Shown one piece after another: positions 48,955 to 53,872 of a DNA stretch of 64,000 nucleotides. The DNA comes from an uncultured Actinomycetota bacterium. GTDB taxonomy: Bacteria > Actinomycetota > Acidimicrobiia > Spongiisociales > UBA4744. A model generated the notes under the pieces. The model saw nothing but the letters and a program-made list of their open reading frames with translations. It was not told where the DNA came from and searched no databases. The translations under genes were made by a program, and so were the position numbers. The DNA is taken from NCBI GenBank assembly GCA_963717135.1, contig CAVQVN010000009.1, positions 318,386-382,385 of the forward strand, given 5' to 3'. How positions within the stretch are numbered: the first letter of the stretch is position 1; each line of letters begins with the position of its first letter.

Positions 48955-51813
48955 TTAGCGCTCGCCTCGTCGAAGGCCAGTAGACCAACCCGAGATGCCC
49001 ACCGTTTCCTCTTCCCTCTTGCCCATGACCAGCAGCAACACCGACCCGAGGACCAGCAGCGCCACTCCGACCCCGCCGAGGTCTCCTTCGCCCAGGCCGG
49101 TGAATGGCAACGTCTCCGGTGGCGGGCTCGTGGTCGTGGTGATCACTTGGGGAAGCACCGCAGGCTTGGTCAATCCGGCGTCCCAGCTCAGATCATTCTG
49201 GCCGGCACTCAAGGTGATCACGCCGCTCCGTCCGGAGACCGGATCCGCATCGCTGTCCGCGGCATCGGGTCCGCCCGGGTGGCCCGACACGAATACGAAG
49301 CCACTCCCGGCCGGGATCACGAACTCAACCAGGTAGGACCCGGCCGGCAGACCTGCAAAGAGGTACTTCCCGTCACTCCCCGTGACCTGCGACGCCAGCT
49401 TCACGGTCCCGGATCCGTCATAGAGGTTCACCATGACTCCGCCAACCCCCACGTCGCCGATGTCCTGGAACCCATTCCCTTCGGTAATCACTCCGTCGTC
49501 CCAGACGAAGTCACCGATGGATCCAAGGGCCTGGACGGTGGTCGTGGTCGTCGTCGATAGCCGGTTGGTGAACGTGCAGGTCACGGTCTCCCCCGCCTGC
49601 AAACTGATCGCCGAAGGCGGCGACTGATCGTCACACACCGCCGACGTCAACGACCACCCGGCCGCCAGCTGCGCCGCCGACAAAGTCTCCGCCACGTCAT
49701 AAGTACCAGCCGCCAACTCCGAGAAAGTCCTCCCCACCACCGAGTTCTCAGCCACCGTCGCCAACTCGAACACCGACGGAGACAAAGACCCCGACGAGAA
49801 CCCAAACGTCCCAATCCCACCAACCGACACCTTCTCCACCACAATCGAAGAGGGCGGTGGCGGCAACGTATTGGTGAACGTGCAGGTCACGGTCTCCCCC
49901 GCCTGCAAACTGATCGCCGAAGGCGGCGACTGATCATCACACACCGCCGACGTCAACGACCACCCGGCCGCCAGCTGCGCCGCCGACAGAGTCTCCGCCA
50001 CGTCATAAGTACCAGCCGCCAACTCCGAGAAAGTCCTCCCCACCACCGAGTTCTCAGCCACCGTCGCCAACTCGAACACCGACGGAGACAAAGACCCCGA
50101 CGAGAACCCAAACGTCCCAATCCCACCAACCGACACCTTCTCCACCACAATCGAAGAGGGCGGTGGCGGCAACGTATTGGTGAACGTGCAGGTCACGGTC
50201 TCCCCCGCCTGCAAACTGATCGCCGAAGGCGGCGACTGATCATCACACACCGCCGACGTCAACGACCACCCGGCCGCCAGCTGCGCCGCCGACAAAGTCT
50301 CCGCCACGTCATAAGTACCAGCCGCCAACTCCGAGAAAGTCCTCCCCACCACCGAGTTCTCAGCCACCGTCGCCAACTCGAACACCGACGGAGACAAAGA
50401 CCCCGACGAGAACCCAAACGTCCCAATCCCACCAACCGACACCTTCTCCACCACAATCGAAGAGGGCGGTGGCGGCAACGTATTGGTGAACGTGCAGGTC
50501 ACGGTCTCCCCCGCCTGCAAACTGATCGCCGAAGGCGGCGACTGATCATCACACACCGCCGACGTCAACGACCACCCGGCCGCCAGCTGCGCCGCCGACA
50601 AAGTCTCCGCCACGTCATAAGTACCAGCCGCCAACTCCGAGAAAGTCCTCCCCACCACCGAGTTCTCAGCCACCGTCGCCAACTCGAACACCGACGGAGA
50701 CAAAGACCCCGACGAGAACCCAAACGTCCCAATCCCACCAACCGACACCTTCTCCACCACAATCGAAGAGGGCGGTGGCGGCAACGTATTGGTGAACGTG
50801 CAGGTCACGGTCTCCCCCGCCTGCAAACTGATCGCCGAAGGCGGCGACTGATCATCACACACCGCCGACGTCAACGACCACCCGGCCGCCAGCTGCGCCG
50901 CCGACAAAGTCTCCGCCACGTCATAAGTACCAGCCGCCAACTCCGAGAAAGTCCTCCCCACCACCGAGTTCTCAGCCACCGTCGCCAACTCGAACACCGA
51001 CGGAGACAAAGACCCCGACGAGAACCCAAACGTCCCAATCCCACCAACCGACACCTTCTCCACCACAATCGAAGAACTGGGTTCCGGACCAATGGCGCCG
51101 ACCTGGATGCTCCGGGTCTGGTCCGCTTGAGAACCGATGCCGATGCCGTCACGGTCGAACCGGTTTTCGAGGTTGCCACCGCTGAATGAAGAGGCACCAC
51201 CCGCCGGCCATTGGCTGTCCCTGGCCAGATGAGCGCCGTAGTAGAGATGGGCAGTCGTCTCGGTGAACGTGACCGTAAGGGTGTAGTACTTATCCTCTCT
51301 GTCTCCGTGGTCAAAGGTCTGGAGGATCACGCTGTTTACGGTGAAGCCCTTGAACAGGAACTGGCCCGACGGCTGTGCGCCTAGTTGGCTTACAACCTCC
51401 GGGTCGGCCGGGATGGCGATGCTCGAGAGACCTCCCACCAGGGTGGCGGTCTCCGTCTCGTTGACGTCATCGAGGTGATCGTGGCCGGTGTTGCTGGAGG
51501 CATCCTGCCATTCGTAACTGAACGAGAAGGTCGCCGAGCTACCGACCGTGGCGTTCGACCACTCGATCCAATGCGGGATCACATCGCCTTCCACGTATGT
51601 GGAGTTTTGAGCGTTGATCGCTCCCGTTGCCCAGTTGCCGTTGTCGTTCAACCAATGCCGGAAAGTCTCCTGCTGTGCCGCCGCCGACAGTGGTACCTGT
51701 GGCAGGAACGCAATCACGAGCGAAAACACAAAAACCAACGTTGAGAGCCCTCCGGCAAGTCGATAGAGCCTGCCGTAGTGCTTCTCTCGCCGATGCCTTC
51801 CGTGCCTAGCCAT
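48955..51813 (-). CDS. Sortase-anchored surface adhesin: signal peptide, unique N-terminal domain, five CnaB/prealbumin-like repeats, SdrD-B-like domain, LPFTG anchor
   Basis: RBS GGGAGG before ATG 51813; repeats IVVEKV..GTYDVAET..C..CTFTN; GSIGDFVWDD..DSD..WDAGL; LPFTG then TM helix and basic tail. Confidence 0.9.
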   Translation of the reverse strand: MARHGRHRREKHYGRLYRLAGGLSTLVFVFSLVIAFLPQVPLSAAAQQETFRHWLNDNGNWATGAINAQNSTYVEGDVIPHWIEWSNATVGSSATFSFSYEWQDASSNTGHDHLDDVNETETATLVGGLSSIAIPADPEVVSQLGAQPSGQFLFKGFTVNSVILQTFDHGDREDKYYTLTVTFTETTAHLYYGAHLARDSQWPAGGASSFSGGNLENRFDRDGIGIGSQADQTRSIQVGAIGPEPSSSIVVEKVSVGGIGTFGFSSGSLSPSVFELATVAENSVVGRTFSELAAGTYDVAETLSAAQLAAGWSLTSAVCDDQSPPSAISLQAGETVTCTFTNTLPPPPSSIVVEKVSVGGIGTFGFSSGSLSPSVFELATVAENSVVGRTFSELAAGTYDVAETLSAAQLAAGWSLTSAVCDDQSPPSAISLQAGETVTCTFTNTLPPPPSSIVVEKVSVGGIGTFGFSSGSLSPSVFELATVAENSVVGRTFSELAAGTYDVAETLSAAQLAAGWSLTSAVCDDQSPPSAISLQAGETVTCTFTNTLPPPPSSIVVEKVSVGGIGTFGFSSGSLSPSVFELATVAENSVVGRTFSELAAGTYDVAETLSAAQLAAGWSLTSAVCDDQSPPSAISLQAGETVTCTFTNTLPPPPSSIVVEKVSVGGIGTFGFSSGSLSPSVFELATVAENSVVGRTFSELAAGTYDVAETLSAAQLAAGWSLTSAVCDDQSPPSAISLQAGETVTCTFTNRLSTTTTTTVQALGSIGDFVWDDGVITEGNGFQDIGDVGVGGVMVNLYDGSGTVKLASQVTGSDGKYLFAGLPAGSYLVEFVIPAGSGFVFVSGHPGGPDAADSDADPVSGRSGVITLSAGQNDLSWDAGLTKPAVLPQVITTTTSPPPETLPFTGLGEGDLGGVGVALLVLGSVLLLVMGKREEETVGISGWSTGLRRGER
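49565..51075. repeat. Five tandem 306-bp near-identical intragenic repeats
   Basis: Units start at 49565, 49871, 50177, 50483 and 50789. I spotted only two isolated differences (GATCGTCAC vs GATCATCAC; GACAGAGTC vs GACAAAGTC). Confidence 0.97.
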
Positions 51814-51873
51814 TGTGTGCCTCCCGACCTCATCGCTTCGAACCCATTCAAAGGGCAACCCTCTTTCAAGGGT

Positions 51874-51946
51874 CAGGTCGGTCTCACCATTGGCTCGCTT
51901 CGATCCACGGTGACCGTGCTCGGATCGAAGGTCTGCACCTCCCAAT
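51874..51946 (-). ncRNA. c-di-GMP-II-like riboswitch (variant)
   Basis: Minus strand GGGAGGTGCAGAC-CTTCGATCC-gagcac-GGTCACC-gt-GGATCGAAG-C-GAGCCAAT-GGTGAGACC-GACC: 9-bp stem, kink-turn-like AGA/GAG, loop-to-3' pseudoknot and the family-typical 3' end. Confidence 0.78.
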
Positions 51947-52282
51947 GCCCGTCTCCGTGGTTGCGCCCCCAAGGCTTAGACAACCACTCTCAGTGTTTAG
52001 TTTGCCACGGATTGCACCAGAGAGTAAGGGGACCCACCGGGTCAATTCACAGTTGCAGACAAGAACTAGTCACCGACACCATCAAGAAGACTCGCGCAAG
52101 CCGTTGCACACCACCCTTTCCATCGCAGGCAATCTTGCGCGTCCCGGCCGGCCTGACCACTCCGACCAGGTTGTGGTGTCTTGTGGCGGCTCGTGCCGGG
52201 TTCCCTGGGACGCGGGTGAGCACAGCTTGGTTGGTAGTCGTGTGCGAGGCACAATGGTGGTTTCCGATGGGCGGAGGATGAG

Positions 52283-53872
52283 GTGCGAGCATCGGTGGTG
52301 GTCGCCGAGACGATCTCGGAGGCGGGGATCAAGGCGCTGGAGGAGTGTTGCGAGGTTGTCGTCGCGGTCGGTGTTCCCGTGGAAGCGCTGCATCGTCATC
52401 TTGTTCACGCTCAGGCGCTGATCGTCCGTTCGGCGACCTCGGTCGATCGGCGATTGATCGAGGCTGCCCCGGAGCTGAAAGTGATCGGTCGGGCCGGGAT
52501 CGGGGTCGACAACATCGACATCGAGGCGGCTACCGAGGCGGGGATTCTGGTCGTCAACGCACCGCAGGCCAATGTGATCTCGGCGGCCGAGCACACGATG
52601 GCCCTGTTGCTGGGCCAGGCCCGCAACCTTCCCGGGGCCGACGCGTCGTTGCGATCTGGTGTGTGGGATCGCAAGAGTTTCCAGGGCGTGGAACTGCACG
52701 GCAAGACACTGGGGTTGGTCGGGTTGGGGAGGGTCGGCTCGCTGGTCGCGCAGCGCGCCGTCTCCTTCGGGATGCGGCTGATTGCCCATGATCCGTATGT
52801 GGGTGTGGAGCGGGCTCGCCGGCTCCAGGTGGAGCTGGCCGAAGATCTGGATCGCCTTTACGCGGAGGCGGATTTCATCAGTTTTCATCTGCCGCTGACC
52901 CGGGAAACGGAGGGGATGGTCGATGCCGACAGCTTGGCCAGAATGCGGACGGGGGTGCGCATCGTCAACACCTCGCGGGGCGGGATCATCAACGAAGACG
53001 CCCTCGCTGAGGCGATCCGGGCGGGCCAAGTCGCAGGAGCCGCGCTCGACGTGTTCGCCCACGAGCCACTCCAGGAAAGCCCGCTGTTCAGTCTTCCCCA
53101 AGTTGTGCTTACGCCCCATCTGGGCGCTTCGACCAGGGAAGCGCAGGACAAGGCGGGAACCGACGTGGCGGCGGCGGTGGCGGCGGCGTTGCGGGGCGAG
53201 TTGGTGATGTCTGCGGTCAACGTCGATATCGGCACGGACGTTGCCGACGAGGTCCGTAGTTTCCTCCCGCTGGCCGAGCACCTCGGACATGTCTTTGTGA
53301 CGCTCGCCCGTGGCTTGCCCGACCATCTAACCATCCGGGTGGAGGGCCGACTGGCCGAGTACCCGGTTCGGCCCCTGCGGCTGGCGGCGTTGAAGGGTGC
53401 CCTCTCTGGGGTCAGCAGTCATCGGGTTTCCTATGTGAACGCAACCTCGATGGCCGAACGGCGCGGCATCCAGCTGACCGATGAAGCCTCTACGGAGGCG
53501 AGCGGATACGTGTCGCTGGTGCGATTGACCGGCGTGGTTGGCGGCCGAGAGATCTCGCTGGCCGGCACTATCGGTCGCAAAGCGCCGATGCTGGCAGAGG
53601 TGCTGGGGTTCGAGGTGGAACTACCACTCTCCCAGCACATGCTGATCGTCCGCAACGCCGATGAGCCCGGCATGATCGGCCGGGTCGCCACGTTCTTGGG
53701 AAACGAGAGAATCAATATCGCCAACATGGTGGTCGGCAGATCTCCGATCACCGGTGAGGCCCAGATGATGGGCCTCGACGTCGACCAGCCCCTCGACCCA
53801 CAAGTTGTGGAAGGGATCCGGAAACTCCCGGGCGTCGAAGACGCCCAGTTCGTTCAACTCCCCCTCATCTGA
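52283..53872 (+). CDS. serA: D-3-phosphoglycerate dehydrogenase
   Basis: IVRSAT, GRAGIGVDNID, GLGRVG, NTSRGG, TPHLGAST, C-terminal ACT domain DEPGMIG. Confidence 0.95.
   Translation: MRASVVVAETISEAGIKALEECCEVVVAVGVPVEALHRHLVHAQALIVRSATSVDRRLIEAAPELKVIGRAGIGVDNIDIEAATEAGILVVNAPQANVISAAEHTMALLLGQARNLPGADASLRSGVWDRKSFQGVELHGKTLGLVGLGRVGSLVAQRAVSFGMRLIAHDPYVGVERARRLQVELAEDLDRLYAEADFISFHLPLTRETEGMVDADSLARMRTGVRIVNTSRGGIINEDALAEAIRAGQVAGAALDVFAHEPLQESPLFSLPQVVLTPHLGASTREAQDKAGTDVAAAVAAALRGELVMSAVNVDIGTDVADEVRSFLPLAEHLGHVFVTLARGLPDHLTIRVEGRLAEYPVRPLRLAALKGALSGVSSHRVSYVNATSMAERRGIQLTDEASTEASGYVSLVRLTGVVGGREISLAGTIGRKAPMLAEVLGFEVELPLSQHMLIVRNADEPGMIGRVATFLGNERINIANMVVGRSPITGEAQMMGLDVDQPLDPQVVEGIRKLPGVEDAQFVQLPLI

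Follow-up and report, generated by a model that had tools for sequence, protein, structure and literature searches.

A c-di-GMP-II-GAG riboswitch as a probable translational ON switch in the leader of an LPFTG surface protein gene from an uncultured Acidimicrobiia bacterium

The 5' leader of a gene for a 952-aa LPFTG adhesin from an uncultured member of the Acidimicrobiia contains a copy of the Rfam family RF03169 (c-di-GMP-II-GAG), which very probably serves as a translational ON switch; its ligand is most likely a cyclic dinucleotide, with roughly even chances that this is c-di-GMP itself. A cmscan search of the 64-kb stretch analysed here (64,000 nucleotides, hereafter "the window") matched the element to RF03169 over model positions 1-86, i.e. 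the full length, with 67.8 bits (E = 2.2e-11; the curated gathering score is 40 bits), and the element at 51951-51867 on the minus strand is the sole RF03169 hit in the 3.49-Mb genome. At the same site the canonical c-di-GMP-II model RF01786 reaches 43.1 bits, below its cut-off of 53.5, while RF03170 (c-di-GMP-II-GCG) reaches 53.5 bits, which exceeds its cut-off of 47.9 and falls 14 bits short of the GAG model; the GCG signature is absent, as the sequence reads GAG. Judged by sequence, the leader is thus a genuine riboswitch of a catalogued family, a variant of c-di-GMP-II with a predicted ligand role. The first-pass annotation had described it as a c-di-GMP-II-like variant aptamer, in agreement with RF03169 being the best of the three clan models scored. 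It had also offered the locus as an undescribed system. This part has to be given up because the RNA is a full-length member of a curated family, the very GAG variant model that the annotation had named for a covariance-model check, and the family is common, with members in 65 of the 151 genomes that were sampled in this class.

At the ligand-contact bulge the window reads GGUGA-GA-CCG, compared with UGGCGAGACCG in the RF03169 consensus and gGUGCAACCG in that of RF01786. The two consensus lines suggest that the name "GAG" refers to the G-A bulge replacing the canonical A-A. The "GA" signature of the window is formed by G51883-A51882, where canonical relatives have AA. Aptamers were assigned to the GA or AA type by sequence only, because the score ranges of the two Rfam models overlap, and typing by score difference was rejected for the same reason. 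The 5' junction GGGAGG, which had been taken for a further departure from the canonical class, is not one, since gGAggC stands at the same place in the canonical Rfam consensus.

Table 1. Positions of the aptamer, its expression platform and the adjoining features within the window
Feature	Position	Strand	Basis or remark
Leader or promoter stretch upstream of aptamer	51952..52073	-	conserved in relatives
Aptamer	51867..51951	-	full-length RF03169 match (clan CL00127)
P1 5' strand CGGGCAUUGGG	51941..51951	-	pairs with 51877-51867 in cmscan alignment
P2 5' strand GGU	51937..51939	-	pairs with GCC 51894-51892; cmscan alignment
Kink-turn-like junction	51936-51931	-	directly 3' of P2 5' strand
P3 hairpin	51898..51930	-	9-bp stem 51930-51922 with 51906-51898; loop holds CGGUCACC at 51916-51909
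Pseudoknot 3' strand GGUGA-GA-CCG	51879..51888	-	complementarity read from sequence
P1 3' strand CCUGACCCUUG	51867..51877	-	common to aptamer and OFF-state structures
Anti-SD segment CCGACCU	51875..51881	-	exact complement of AGGUCGG 51830-51824
GAAA-loop hairpin ACCCUU/GAGGGU	51858..51873	-	predicted to take up outer P1 3' strand in OFF fold
Small second hairpin GCCC...GGGU	51842..51856	-	within long-range anti-SD helix; predicted, MFE fold
AGGUCGG 51830-51824 overlapping Shine-Dalgarno (SD) GGGAGG 51825-51820	51820..51830	-	6 nt before ATG at 51813
Regulated gene, 952-aa surface protein	48955..51813	-	translation and Pfam

The sequence features listed in the first-pass annotation were all found on the minus strand where it had placed them, and their combination is far beyond chance, as indicated by the cmscan E-value and by the fold of the 161-nt leader (z = -4.27 against 200 shuffles). 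The P3 stem, CUUCGAUCC/GGAUCGAAG, is free of mismatches and closes the loop GGUCACC (51915-51909); compensatory changes occur in all eight of its modelled pairs, and 98.7% of cells are paired in 28 relatives (97.1% in 39 class-wide sequences). The tail GGUGAGACC at 51888-51880 takes part in the pseudoknot, in which GGUGA (51888-51884) pairs with UCACC of the loop (51913-51909) and CCG (51881-51879) with CGG (51916-51914). In an alignment built on a model that lacks the pseudoknot, these pairs are formed in 97.7% of cells in the 39 sequences, one of them being G-C in 24 and A-U in 15. The junction shows a kink-turn-like tandem GA/AG (GA 51933-51932 and GA 51896-51895), and P2 is paired in 98.8% of cells in the relatives and 97.3% in the wider set. 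In this copy P1 is interrupted at its centre by two mismatches, with GG/CC(U) on the inner side and GGG/CCC on the outer side. Its inner three pairs are invariant or alternate between G-C and G-U in the relatives. Covariation of the outer part is seen in the wider set, where all 11 P1 pairs show two-sided changes with 70% of cells paired. Taken together, P3 and outer P1 covary, inner P1 is conserved and P2 is 97-99% paired; over the whole structure 87.5% of cells are paired compared with 70.9% in shuffles, none of 500 shuffles reaching the observed value. Distant lineages share the same pocket nucleotides without exception, in contrast to the covarying helices.

The segment complementary to the SD region is composed of three nucleotides of the pseudoknot, one A and three nucleotides of P1, and the MFE fold of the leader (-69.1 kcal/mol) contains the CCGACCU/AGGUCGG helix with the flank of the SD paired. 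According to the model that we favor, in the ligand-free state CCGACCU would pair with AGGUCGG and bury the start of the SD GGGAGG, and the local GAAA hairpin would take up ACCCUU (51873-51868), dismantling the 3' strand of the aptamer. Ligand binding would let the pseudoknot and P1 hold those nucleotides, so that the SD is freed and the adhesin translated. Aptamer formation and SD sequestration are mutually exclusive, because both draw on the 3' strand of the aptamer, which supplies the SD-complementary segment. In 96 related leaders with the start codon 20-70 nt downstream, the aptamer tail binds its own SD region with a mean of -13.9 kcal/mol, as opposed to -11.9 kcal/mol for permuted partners, a difference attained in 0 of 500 permutations of sequences that are related and hence not independent. 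The pairing is maintained by covarying anti-SD/SD motifs (TGTCCC/GGGATAGG, CGTCCC/GGGATGGG, CGCCCC/GGAGGCGG, CTCCCC/GGGAGG and CGCTTCC/GGAAGGCG), and the window's own type recurs in three relatives (CCGACC/GGTCGG in L025, CCGGCC/GGTCGG in L029 and CCGGCC/GGCCGG in L014). At the level of sequence, the aptamer strand is thus complementary to the SD region, exclusive with the aptamer and covarying. The earlier proposal of an anti-SD aptamer strand in a translational ON design finds support in the MFE fold and the permutations. At least six leaders of other lineages carry a terminator instead, built from GAGACCGGCC and a T-run, with the pseudoknot strand as its 5' arm; this arrangement, too, is predicted to be an ON design.

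Constraint folding with nearest-neighbour energies places the OFF fold ahead of the pseudoknot-less aptamer by about 37 kcal/mol, a gap that serves as a caveat only, because such folding cannot include the energy of the pseudoknot or the ligand; with the OFF fold favored to this extent, the ON state would need co-transcriptional capture. The weak P1 with its two mismatches, the stable OFF fold and the lack of a detected promoter were counted against the ON-switch model. A search for a sigma-70-type promoter in 51700-52400 found none, and the one terminator-like site, at 52110-52093, is no more than chance would yield (0.6 expected). Contigs from RNA libraries of relatives can be aligned as far as 52073, beyond which they diverge. 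Some bridge the aptamer and the start codon (X16 record 7, 51801-52073, and X19 record 15, 51782-51955), which was counted in favor of the model. These are Logan contigs from relatives about 85-95% alike, assembled from libraries that can hold DNA, and they give neither ends, strand, transcription start nor expression level.

The regulated protein comprises an N-terminal membrane/signal segment (a signal peptide by visual judgement only), a series of five almost identical SpaA_4 (prealbumin-like) repeats and an SdrD_B domain (Pfam: SpaA_4, 2.1e-68 in 5 stretches; SdrD_B, 1e-30). The repeats correspond to an array at 49565-51075 of 306 nt x 4.9 copies with 99% matches. At the C-terminus, LPFTG is followed by the hydrophobic GLGEGDLGGVGVALLVLGSVLLLV and the basic tail MGKREEE..., and the genome contains three sortase-family matches; a predicted export signal, a C-terminal LPXTG with hydrophobic segment and basic tail, and a genomic sortase are therefore all present, which bears out the description of the product as a sortase-anchored adhesin. 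Among 137 distinct aptamers of the family 131 are followed by an ORF; 54 of the 83 complete downstream ORFs have LPxTG within the last 70 residues (LPFTG in 47), and SpaA, SdrD_B, DUF7507 or DUF11 domains were found in 34 of 125 scanned proteins. These counts are approximate because the ORF calls are heuristic (first SD-preceded start) and a few are wrong, e.g. L020 and L107. By its sequence, the 952-aa LPFTG protein appears to be a typical target of c-di-GMP-II-GAG aptamers.

Compared with the RF03169 family, the window copy shares the P1-P2-kink-P3 architecture, the loop-tail pseudoknot, the GA bulge and the site before a secreted LPxTG surface protein, and differs in nothing essential: it lies 62 nt from the start codon (the family median is 38) and has two extra hairpins in the long-range anti-SD helix as well as the two P1 mismatches. 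A parallel from another fold is offered by Bc2, which we take to be a class I (GEMM) riboswitch. Bc2 is a c-di-GMP riboswitch in the 5' UTR of the Bacillus thuringiensis gene for Cap, a collagen adhesion protein (PMC4933901); the window resembles it in having a cyclic-dinucleotide riboswitch (here predicted) in an adhesin 5' UTR, whereas the host of Bc2 is a Firmicute and its ligand has been tested. With canonical c-di-GMP-II (RF01786; crystal structure 3Q3Z, as cited in PMC13715770) the window element shares the overall fold, the pseudoknot and the predicted role of switching on a gene for a surface anchor, adhesin or pilin; tandem c-di-GMP-II riboswitches are described before surface-anchor proteins (PMC9481103). 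The element differs from the canonical class in the bulge (GA, not AA), in the neighbouring pseudoknot pair (A-U, not C-G) and in the first loop nucleotide (C, not U).

These differences bear on the ligand. In the canonical class II pocket, adenines read and intercalate the ligand (PMC13715770). On our mapping to the consensus, the residue reading one guanine of c-di-GMP would be the first A of the AA bulge; the window has G at this position, and C replaces U as the partner of the neighbouring G. Within the same bacterial class, GA-type and AA-type aptamers differ by these two coupled pocket changes: the loop begins with a nucleotide that pairs with the G adjoining the bulge, and this nucleotide is C in 18/18 GA-type and U in 21/21 AA/AC-type sequences (alignment pair 54-94 is C-G in 18 sequences and U-G in 18). 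GA-type and canonical-pocket (AA/AC) aptamers co-occur in four genomes; in five other GA-type genomes no canonical aptamer scored above the cut-off. A loose pattern search for aptamers was discarded, as it produced chance sites in 134 of the 151 genomes. A literature search outside supplementary files found no report of a tested ligand for the c-di-GMP-II-GAG variant; the "c-di-GMP-II variant" of a 2026 PNAS article is an engineered Bacillus halodurans aptamer and not a member of this family.

The distribution of cyclases cuts both ways. The window's genome has the GGDEF, EAL and HD-GYP genes for which a check had been suggested, in the form of GAF-GGDEF-EAL and REC-GGDEF-HD-GYP proteins with intact GGDEF/GGEEF motifs. 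At least one GGDEF-family match was found in all 34 aptamer-bearing genomes searched (21/21 relatives and 16/16 members of family f4, with G022, G024 and G030 counted in both sets), and 13 further genomes, all with AA- or AC-type aptamers (four also with GA-type), have 7-28 matches each. Of the 16 aptamer-bearing f4 genomes, which are GA-type, 11 are without a full-length GGDEF match and have only a divergent REC-GGDDF protein along with 3-8 HD-GYP-type domains each; c-di-GMP turnover is still possible in them, because both kinds of domains are present. The altered guanine-reading residue and these 11 genomes were counted against c-di-GMP as the ligand. The REC-GGDDF protein was also considered as a general source of a special ligand and rejected: of nine GA-type genomes outside the order, eight (G047, G130, G135, G144, G179-G181 and G183) gave no match to it and the ninth, G182, matched only in part (45% identity across residues 32-89 of the 185-aa query), and within the order it is near-universal with or without the riboswitch. 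PDB and Atlas look-ups with this protein gave no more than receiver domains, PleD and generic GGDEF clusters. In GGDEF-type cyclases, Asn and Asp residues specify guanine. These residues are retained in the two full-length GGDEF proteins as well as in REC-GGDDF (GHAAGD, GHAVGD and GFMRGD), and therefore none of the three resembles a cGAMP-making "Hypr" enzyme. The ligand would most likely be a cyclic dinucleotide from a GGDEF-type cyclase, among which c-di-GMP is the single most likely and most economical candidate, at about even odds.

The chief competing explanation retains the RNA, the platform and the ON logic and regards the GA type as a separate specificity class for a signalling molecule other than c-di-GMP, which might be 3',3'-cGAMP, a different dinucleotide, cyclic or linear, or some unknown derivative of a nucleotide; we regard this as possible, with a minor share of the probability. 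The coupled pocket changes argue for it, as does the contrast between the 11 f4 genomes and the 13/13 AA/AC-type genomes rich in GGDEF matches, and Weinberg et al., who defined the variant in PNAS in 2017, reportedly proposed a different signalling molecule. The sharing of genomes by the two types points the same way but weakly, because a single ligand is often sensed by several riboswitch classes within one genome. On the other hand, a search of the window's genome gave no SMODS/CD-NTase match as an alternative synthase, its GGDEF-type proteins keep the guanine-type residues, and the f4 genomes retain REC-GGDDF and HD-GYP-type domains. Moreover, the regulated adhesins, pilin-like and other secreted proteins are the usual c-di-GMP-II targets, and AA-type aptamers in the shared genomes likewise precede secreted proteins. 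There is a precedent in the c-AMP-GMP (3',3'-cGAMP) riboswitches, variants of c-di-GMP-I in which few pocket substitutions change the sensed dinucleotide and both types occur in one genome (PMC7266159); those have the GEMM-I fold, and the change of ligand is experimental there and only a possibility for the GA type.

It is improbable that the conserved RNA is no small-molecule switch at all, but a protein-binding leader, an RNA thermometer or a constitutive structure tuning translation. SD-sequestering hairpins alone could give thermometer action, the OFF fold is far more stable than the aptamer fold in nearest-neighbour terms, and the lack of a ligand report would fit; yet in its fold, with pseudoknot and bulged pocket purines, the RNA matches a validated ligand-binding class, its pocket is invariant across distant lineages amid covarying helices, and the use of one aptamer strand by two platforms (anti-SD and terminator) is a hallmark of riboswitches. 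Some c-di-GMP riboswitches are OFF switches. An OFF switch here, with adhesin expression lowered by ligand binding, is the least probable reading: nothing specific favors it, and it conflicts with the mutual exclusion of aptamer and SD sequestration as well as with the role of the pseudoknot strand as the terminator 5' arm in the terminator-type relatives.

The window locus adds little alone, being a further copy of a catalogued riboswitch family at the kind of site where the family is normally met. The c-di-GMP-II-GAG family itself is abundant and appears to control a set of sortase-anchored and other secreted proteins, and the two coupled pocket changes, the co-occurrence with canonical-pocket relatives and the presence in genomes without canonical GGDEF proteins provide an experimental handle on it. 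If the ligand is c-di-GMP, little-studied and mostly uncultured Actinomycetota would operate the classical switch from a motile or planktonic to an adhesive life, and back, through a remodelled pocket. Otherwise, an unrecognised second messenger would stand behind adhesin display, and a separate specificity class would mean that an unrecognised nucleotide signal is tied to surface-protein display in Acidimicrobiia and other Actinomycetota.

Searching the full window with the Rfam models gave a single over-threshold match, c-di-GMP-II-GAG (RF03169), located on the minus strand at 51951-51867 in the leader of the LPFTG adhesin gene. The match scores 67.8 bits (E = 2.2e-11; gathering score 40) and covers all 86 model positions, and a genome-wide model search found the aptamer to be single-copy in the 3.49-Mb genome (10 contigs). 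It is a new, full-length member of a known, catalogued family and not an unclassified RNA; the first-pass annotation, which had presented it as the best candidate for an undescribed system, is not supported on this point, while the search with the GAG variant covariance model that it had proposed yielded this very match. Its description of the RNA as a c-di-GMP-II-like variant is supported: the sister model RF03170 (GCG) also scores at the site (53.5), and the canonical RF01786 reaches 43.1 there, under its cut-off of 53.5. The 5' junction, supposed to differ from that of the canonical class, does not, since GAgGC appears in both Rfam consensus lines.

All structural features named earlier were recovered at the same positions of the minus-strand sequence (see the table). 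The fold of the 161-nt leader has z = -4.27 relative to 200 dinucleotide shuffles, none of which (0/200) was equally good. In 28 aptamers of relatives, P3 exhibits compensatory changes at 8 of 8 pairs, with 98.7% of cells paired. In 39 distinct class-wide sequences, collected with the Rfam models rather than with our own motif, pairing over all helices and the pseudoknot together amounts to 87.5% vs 70.9% in column shuffles; this fraction was reached by 0 of 500 shuffles, and slid partners attained at most 45%. The pseudoknot is 97.7% paired in these sequences though absent from the alignment model, with one base pair switching between G-C (24 sequences) and A-U (15). On the 5' side of the aptamer, 120 nt (51952-52073, minus strand) are about 90% conserved in RNA-library contigs of relatives, the similarity stopping abruptly at 52073 in two studies, and CCACGG (51960-55) pairs with CCGUGG inside P3 in the minimum-energy fold, a possible competing 5' helix.

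Features of the riboswitch leader, the adhesin gene and the REC-GGDDF proteins (bare coordinates are window positions; L numbers denote contig stretches of compared genomes)
Feature	Position	Strand	Description or basis
P1	51951-41 with 51877-67	minus	two mismatches in centre; cmscan alignment
P2	51939-37 with 51894-92	minus	cmscan alignment
Kink-turn-like junction	51933-32 and 51896-95	minus	tandem G-A; cmscan alignment
P3	51930-22 with 51906-898	minus	perfect 9-bp stem (51930-51922 with 51906-51898)
P3 loop	51916-09	minus	CGGUCACC; includes GGUCACC 51915-51909
Pseudoknot strand	51888-51880	minus	GGUGAGACC; sequence
Pseudoknot, first arm	51888-84	minus	GGUGA with UCACC; cmscan alignment coordinates
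Pseudoknot, second arm	51881-79	minus	CCG with CGG; cmscan alignment coordinates
Bulge separating pseudoknot arms	G51883, A51882	minus	cmscan alignment coordinates
Anti-SD segment	51881-51875	minus	CCGACCU, exact complement of AGGUCGG 51830-51824; sequence
GAAA-loop hairpin	51873-51858	minus	sequence
Shine-Dalgarno (SD)	51825-51820	minus	GGGAGG, overlapped by AGGUCGG; 6 nt ahead of ATG 51813; sequence
SpaA_4-encoding repeat array	49565-51075	minus	five 306-nt repeats, one domain each
REC-GGDDF response regulator, 309 aa	L153:753-1682	plus	genome G000, contig C2, outside the window
REC-GGDDF orthologues	L154:842-1771, L160:742-1671, L162:727-1656	minus	
REC-GGDDF orthologues	L161:798-1727, L163:765-1694, L164:793-1725, L165:729-1658	plus	

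Related aptamers came from 40 relatives and, through a motif scan, from species-representative genomes (at least 120 loci). Our own covariance model confirmed them with 144 matches (137 distinct) in 56/80, 31/40 and 28/28 loci. Other motif matches, in Streptomyces, Aeromonas and others, lacked covariance-model confirmation and were discarded as chance. The order-level neighbourhood has RF03169 in 21 of its 41 genomes (19 of 39 without the unpublished G023 and G034). Sampling 151 high-quality genomes across the class gave 65 carriers (over the cut-off in 58), and several copies often share one contig. Acidimicrobiia or Acidimicrobiales are named in 31 of 80 motif-scan titles, among the matches listed; the remaining listed titles comprise Coriobacteriia, Thermoleophilia, other Actinomycetota, Acidobacteriota and "Eubacteriales" MAGs.

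In the minimum-energy fold of the leader, CCGACCU (made up of three nucleotides of the pseudoknot, one A and three of P1) is paired with AGGUCGG around two small hairpins, the first of which takes up ACCCUU, the outer half of the P1 3' strand. Because the aptamer and the SD-sequestering fold both need CCGACCU and ACCCUU, they are mutually exclusive, which argues for a translational ON design: in the OFF fold AGGUCGG would hold the aptamer 3' strand and the SD would be sequestered, while an aptamer retaining both segments would abolish this fold and turn translation on. The anti-RBS platform and ON switch of the first-pass annotation appear well supported on comparative grounds, from tail/SD pairing and covariation across related leaders. 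For 96 terminator-free leaders whose start codon follows 20-70 nt downstream, the mean pairing energy between the aptamer tail and its own SD region is -13.9 kcal/mol, whereas permuted partners give -11.9 (0 of 500 permutations), a significance overstated by the relatedness of the sequences. The motif pairs covary plainly (TGTCCC/GGGATAGG, CGTCCC/GGGATGGG, CGCCCC/GGAGGCGG, as well as CTCCCC/GGGAGG and CGCTTCC/GGAAGGCG), and three relatives share the window-type arrangement, with a covarying pair (CCGACC/GGTCGG in L025, CCGGCC/GGTCGG in L029, CCGGCC/GGCCGG in L014). In at least six leaders of other lineages the GAGACCGGCC strand instead serves as the 5' arm of a hairpin with a T-run after it, a probable transcriptional ON design; by their record titles, these leaders include one Coriobacteriaceae and two Coriobacteriia MAGs. 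Anti-SD and terminator platforms built on one aptamer strand are the usual signature of a true riboswitch. When pseudoknot and ligand terms are left out, the OFF fold is favoured over the aptamer fold by about 37 kcal/mol, which would require co-transcriptional switching. A search of 51700-52400 for sigma-70-type promoters found none; the sole RNA evidence comes from RNA-library contigs of relatives, which span the aptamer and the start codon.

The regulated ORF (51813-48955, minus strand) encodes 952 residues with a membrane/signal segment at the N terminus, SpaA_4 domains in five near-identical repeats (unit length 306 nt, 4.9 copies, 99% matches), an SdrD_B domain and a C-terminus in which LPFTG is followed by a hydrophobic stretch and a basic tail. 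This architecture, together with three sortase matches in the genome, bears out the proposal of a sortase-anchored adhesin. The true repeat number may differ from five, such arrays being prone to copy-number change and assembly collapse. No sortase or pilus-assembly gene adjoins the adhesin; the divergent neighbour (52283-53872, plus strand) is a serA-type D-3-phosphoglycerate dehydrogenase (2-Hacid_dh, PGDH_inter, ACT), and the minus-strand genes 3' of the adhesin encode an aldo/keto reductase, an ATC_hydrolase-domain protein and a beta-lactamase-fold protein. As the putative riboswitch target the adhesin is likewise well supported on comparative grounds: a downstream ORF follows 131 of the 137 distinct aptamers at a median distance of 38 nt, and 54 of 83 complete downstream ORFs carry LPxTG near the C terminus (LPFTG in 47). 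SpaA/SdrD_B/DUF7507/DUF11 domains occur in 34 of 125 scanned downstream proteins and other families in 10 (multicopper oxidase, phosphatase/FG-GAP, subtilase, type IV pilin signal, GT2, LuxR, others), while the other 81, including many small LPFTG proteins, match no family at E <= 1e-5. At eleven loci (L039 in its second copy, L041, L059, L071, L082, L091, L096, L123, L130, L139 and L141) the aptamer-to-gene interval contains a recurrent insert of about 85 nt, placed after an SD-like GGGATAGG and ATG and before the second SD and real start of an "HHP" surface-protein gene. It holds two GC-rich hairpins (..ggctgg.gacgac...gtcgtctgggg.. and ..cgcgc...gcgcg..) and may represent either a second regulatory module or a short leader ORF.

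The Rfam consensus of canonical c-di-GMP-II reads ...UGGGCAC...gGUGC-AA-CCG, whereas that of the GAG variant reads ...CGGuCGCC...GGCGA-GA-CCG. Aptamers with the canonical AA bulge on the same scaffold (TGGTCGCT...GCGA-AA-CCGG) occur in the same bacterial class, and some exceed the canonical cut-off. Genomes G047, G130, G135 and G144 carry AA-type (L187, L190, L195, L199, L200) and GA-type copies (L184-L186, L188-L189, L191-L193, L196-L198); in G047, G130 and G144 the AA-type copies bear terminator-like platforms and precede a conserved secreted/lipoprotein-like gene (..VCESGVV.Q..). L217 (G165) and L219 (G174), with GUGAGCCCGG and CGGUCACU where others have GUGAGACCGG and CGGUCACC, represent a further pocket variant with C as the second bulge base. 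PMC13715770 describes a pseudoknot-strand adenine that reads the upper guanine, a second adenine that intercalates and a nearby G that reads the lower guanine; we infer that the first of these is the residue replaced by G in the window's aptamer.

We consider c-di-GMP the single most likely ligand, a judgement that is evenly poised. That the GA-type constitutes a separate specificity class, sensing a different nucleotide messenger, is a tentative alternative; Weinberg et al. in 2017 reportedly defined the family and raised the possibility of another signalling molecule as its ligand. In its favour, a second change is perfectly coupled to the bulge across the 39 distinct sequences: the first loop nucleotide, pairing with the G beside the bulge, is C in 18/18 GA-type and U in 21/21 AA/AC-type sequences, and the two types coexist in the four genomes listed. 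The GGDEF complement points the same way, with 7-28 matches (E <= 1e-20) in each of 13/13 genomes with AA/AC-type aptamers, while in family f4, where the riboswitch occurs in 16 of 18 sampled genomes, a divergent 309-aa REC-GGDDF protein is the sole GGDEF match in 11 of 16. Wherever typed, the aptamers of those genomes have the GAG bulge: of 16 regions, 13 contain GAGACC and 2 GAGCCC, with 1 unmatched by the pattern. Pfam GGDEF aligns to the REC-GGDDF protein at profile positions 5-88 of 161 only, and its domain has an insertion ahead of the last strand. This protein is, however, retained in those 11 genomes, along with 3-8 HD-GYP-type domains each; it is highly conserved and near-universal within the order, with DLDNFKAFNDHYGFMRGD and GGDDF invariant in 8/8 orthologues, but does not track the GA-type beyond it, since a search of 9 GA-type genomes there did not find it in 8 and gave only a partial match in G182.

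The window's own genome argues against a separate specificity class. The GGDEF/EAL genes that the first-pass annotation had suggested looking for are present as two full-length GGDEF proteins, GAF-GGDEF-EAL and REC-GGEEF-HD-GYP, next to one DAC domain, and a search for SMODS/CD-NTase found none. The guanine-specifying Asn/Asp pair is preserved in the GGDEF-type domains of all three proteins, REC-GGDDF included. Neither this genome nor five other GA-type genomes contain a canonical class II aptamer over the cut-off, and the GA-type is therefore the only c-di-GMP-II-like sensor in those lineages. Its targets also resemble those of c-di-GMP-II riboswitches, e.g. the surface-anchor proteins reported in PMC9481103. 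Excerpts of reviews of 2020, 2022 and 2025 name no ligand for the GAG variant, that of 2025 giving two types of c-di-GMP-binding riboswitch as validated, and a full-text literature search on the family name, whose reach ends short of supplementary files, surfaced only two methods papers. The ligand question is sharpened, though not settled, by the coupled pocket changes, by the sharing of genomes between GA- and AA-type aptamers and by GA-type genomes that lack a canonical GGDEF.
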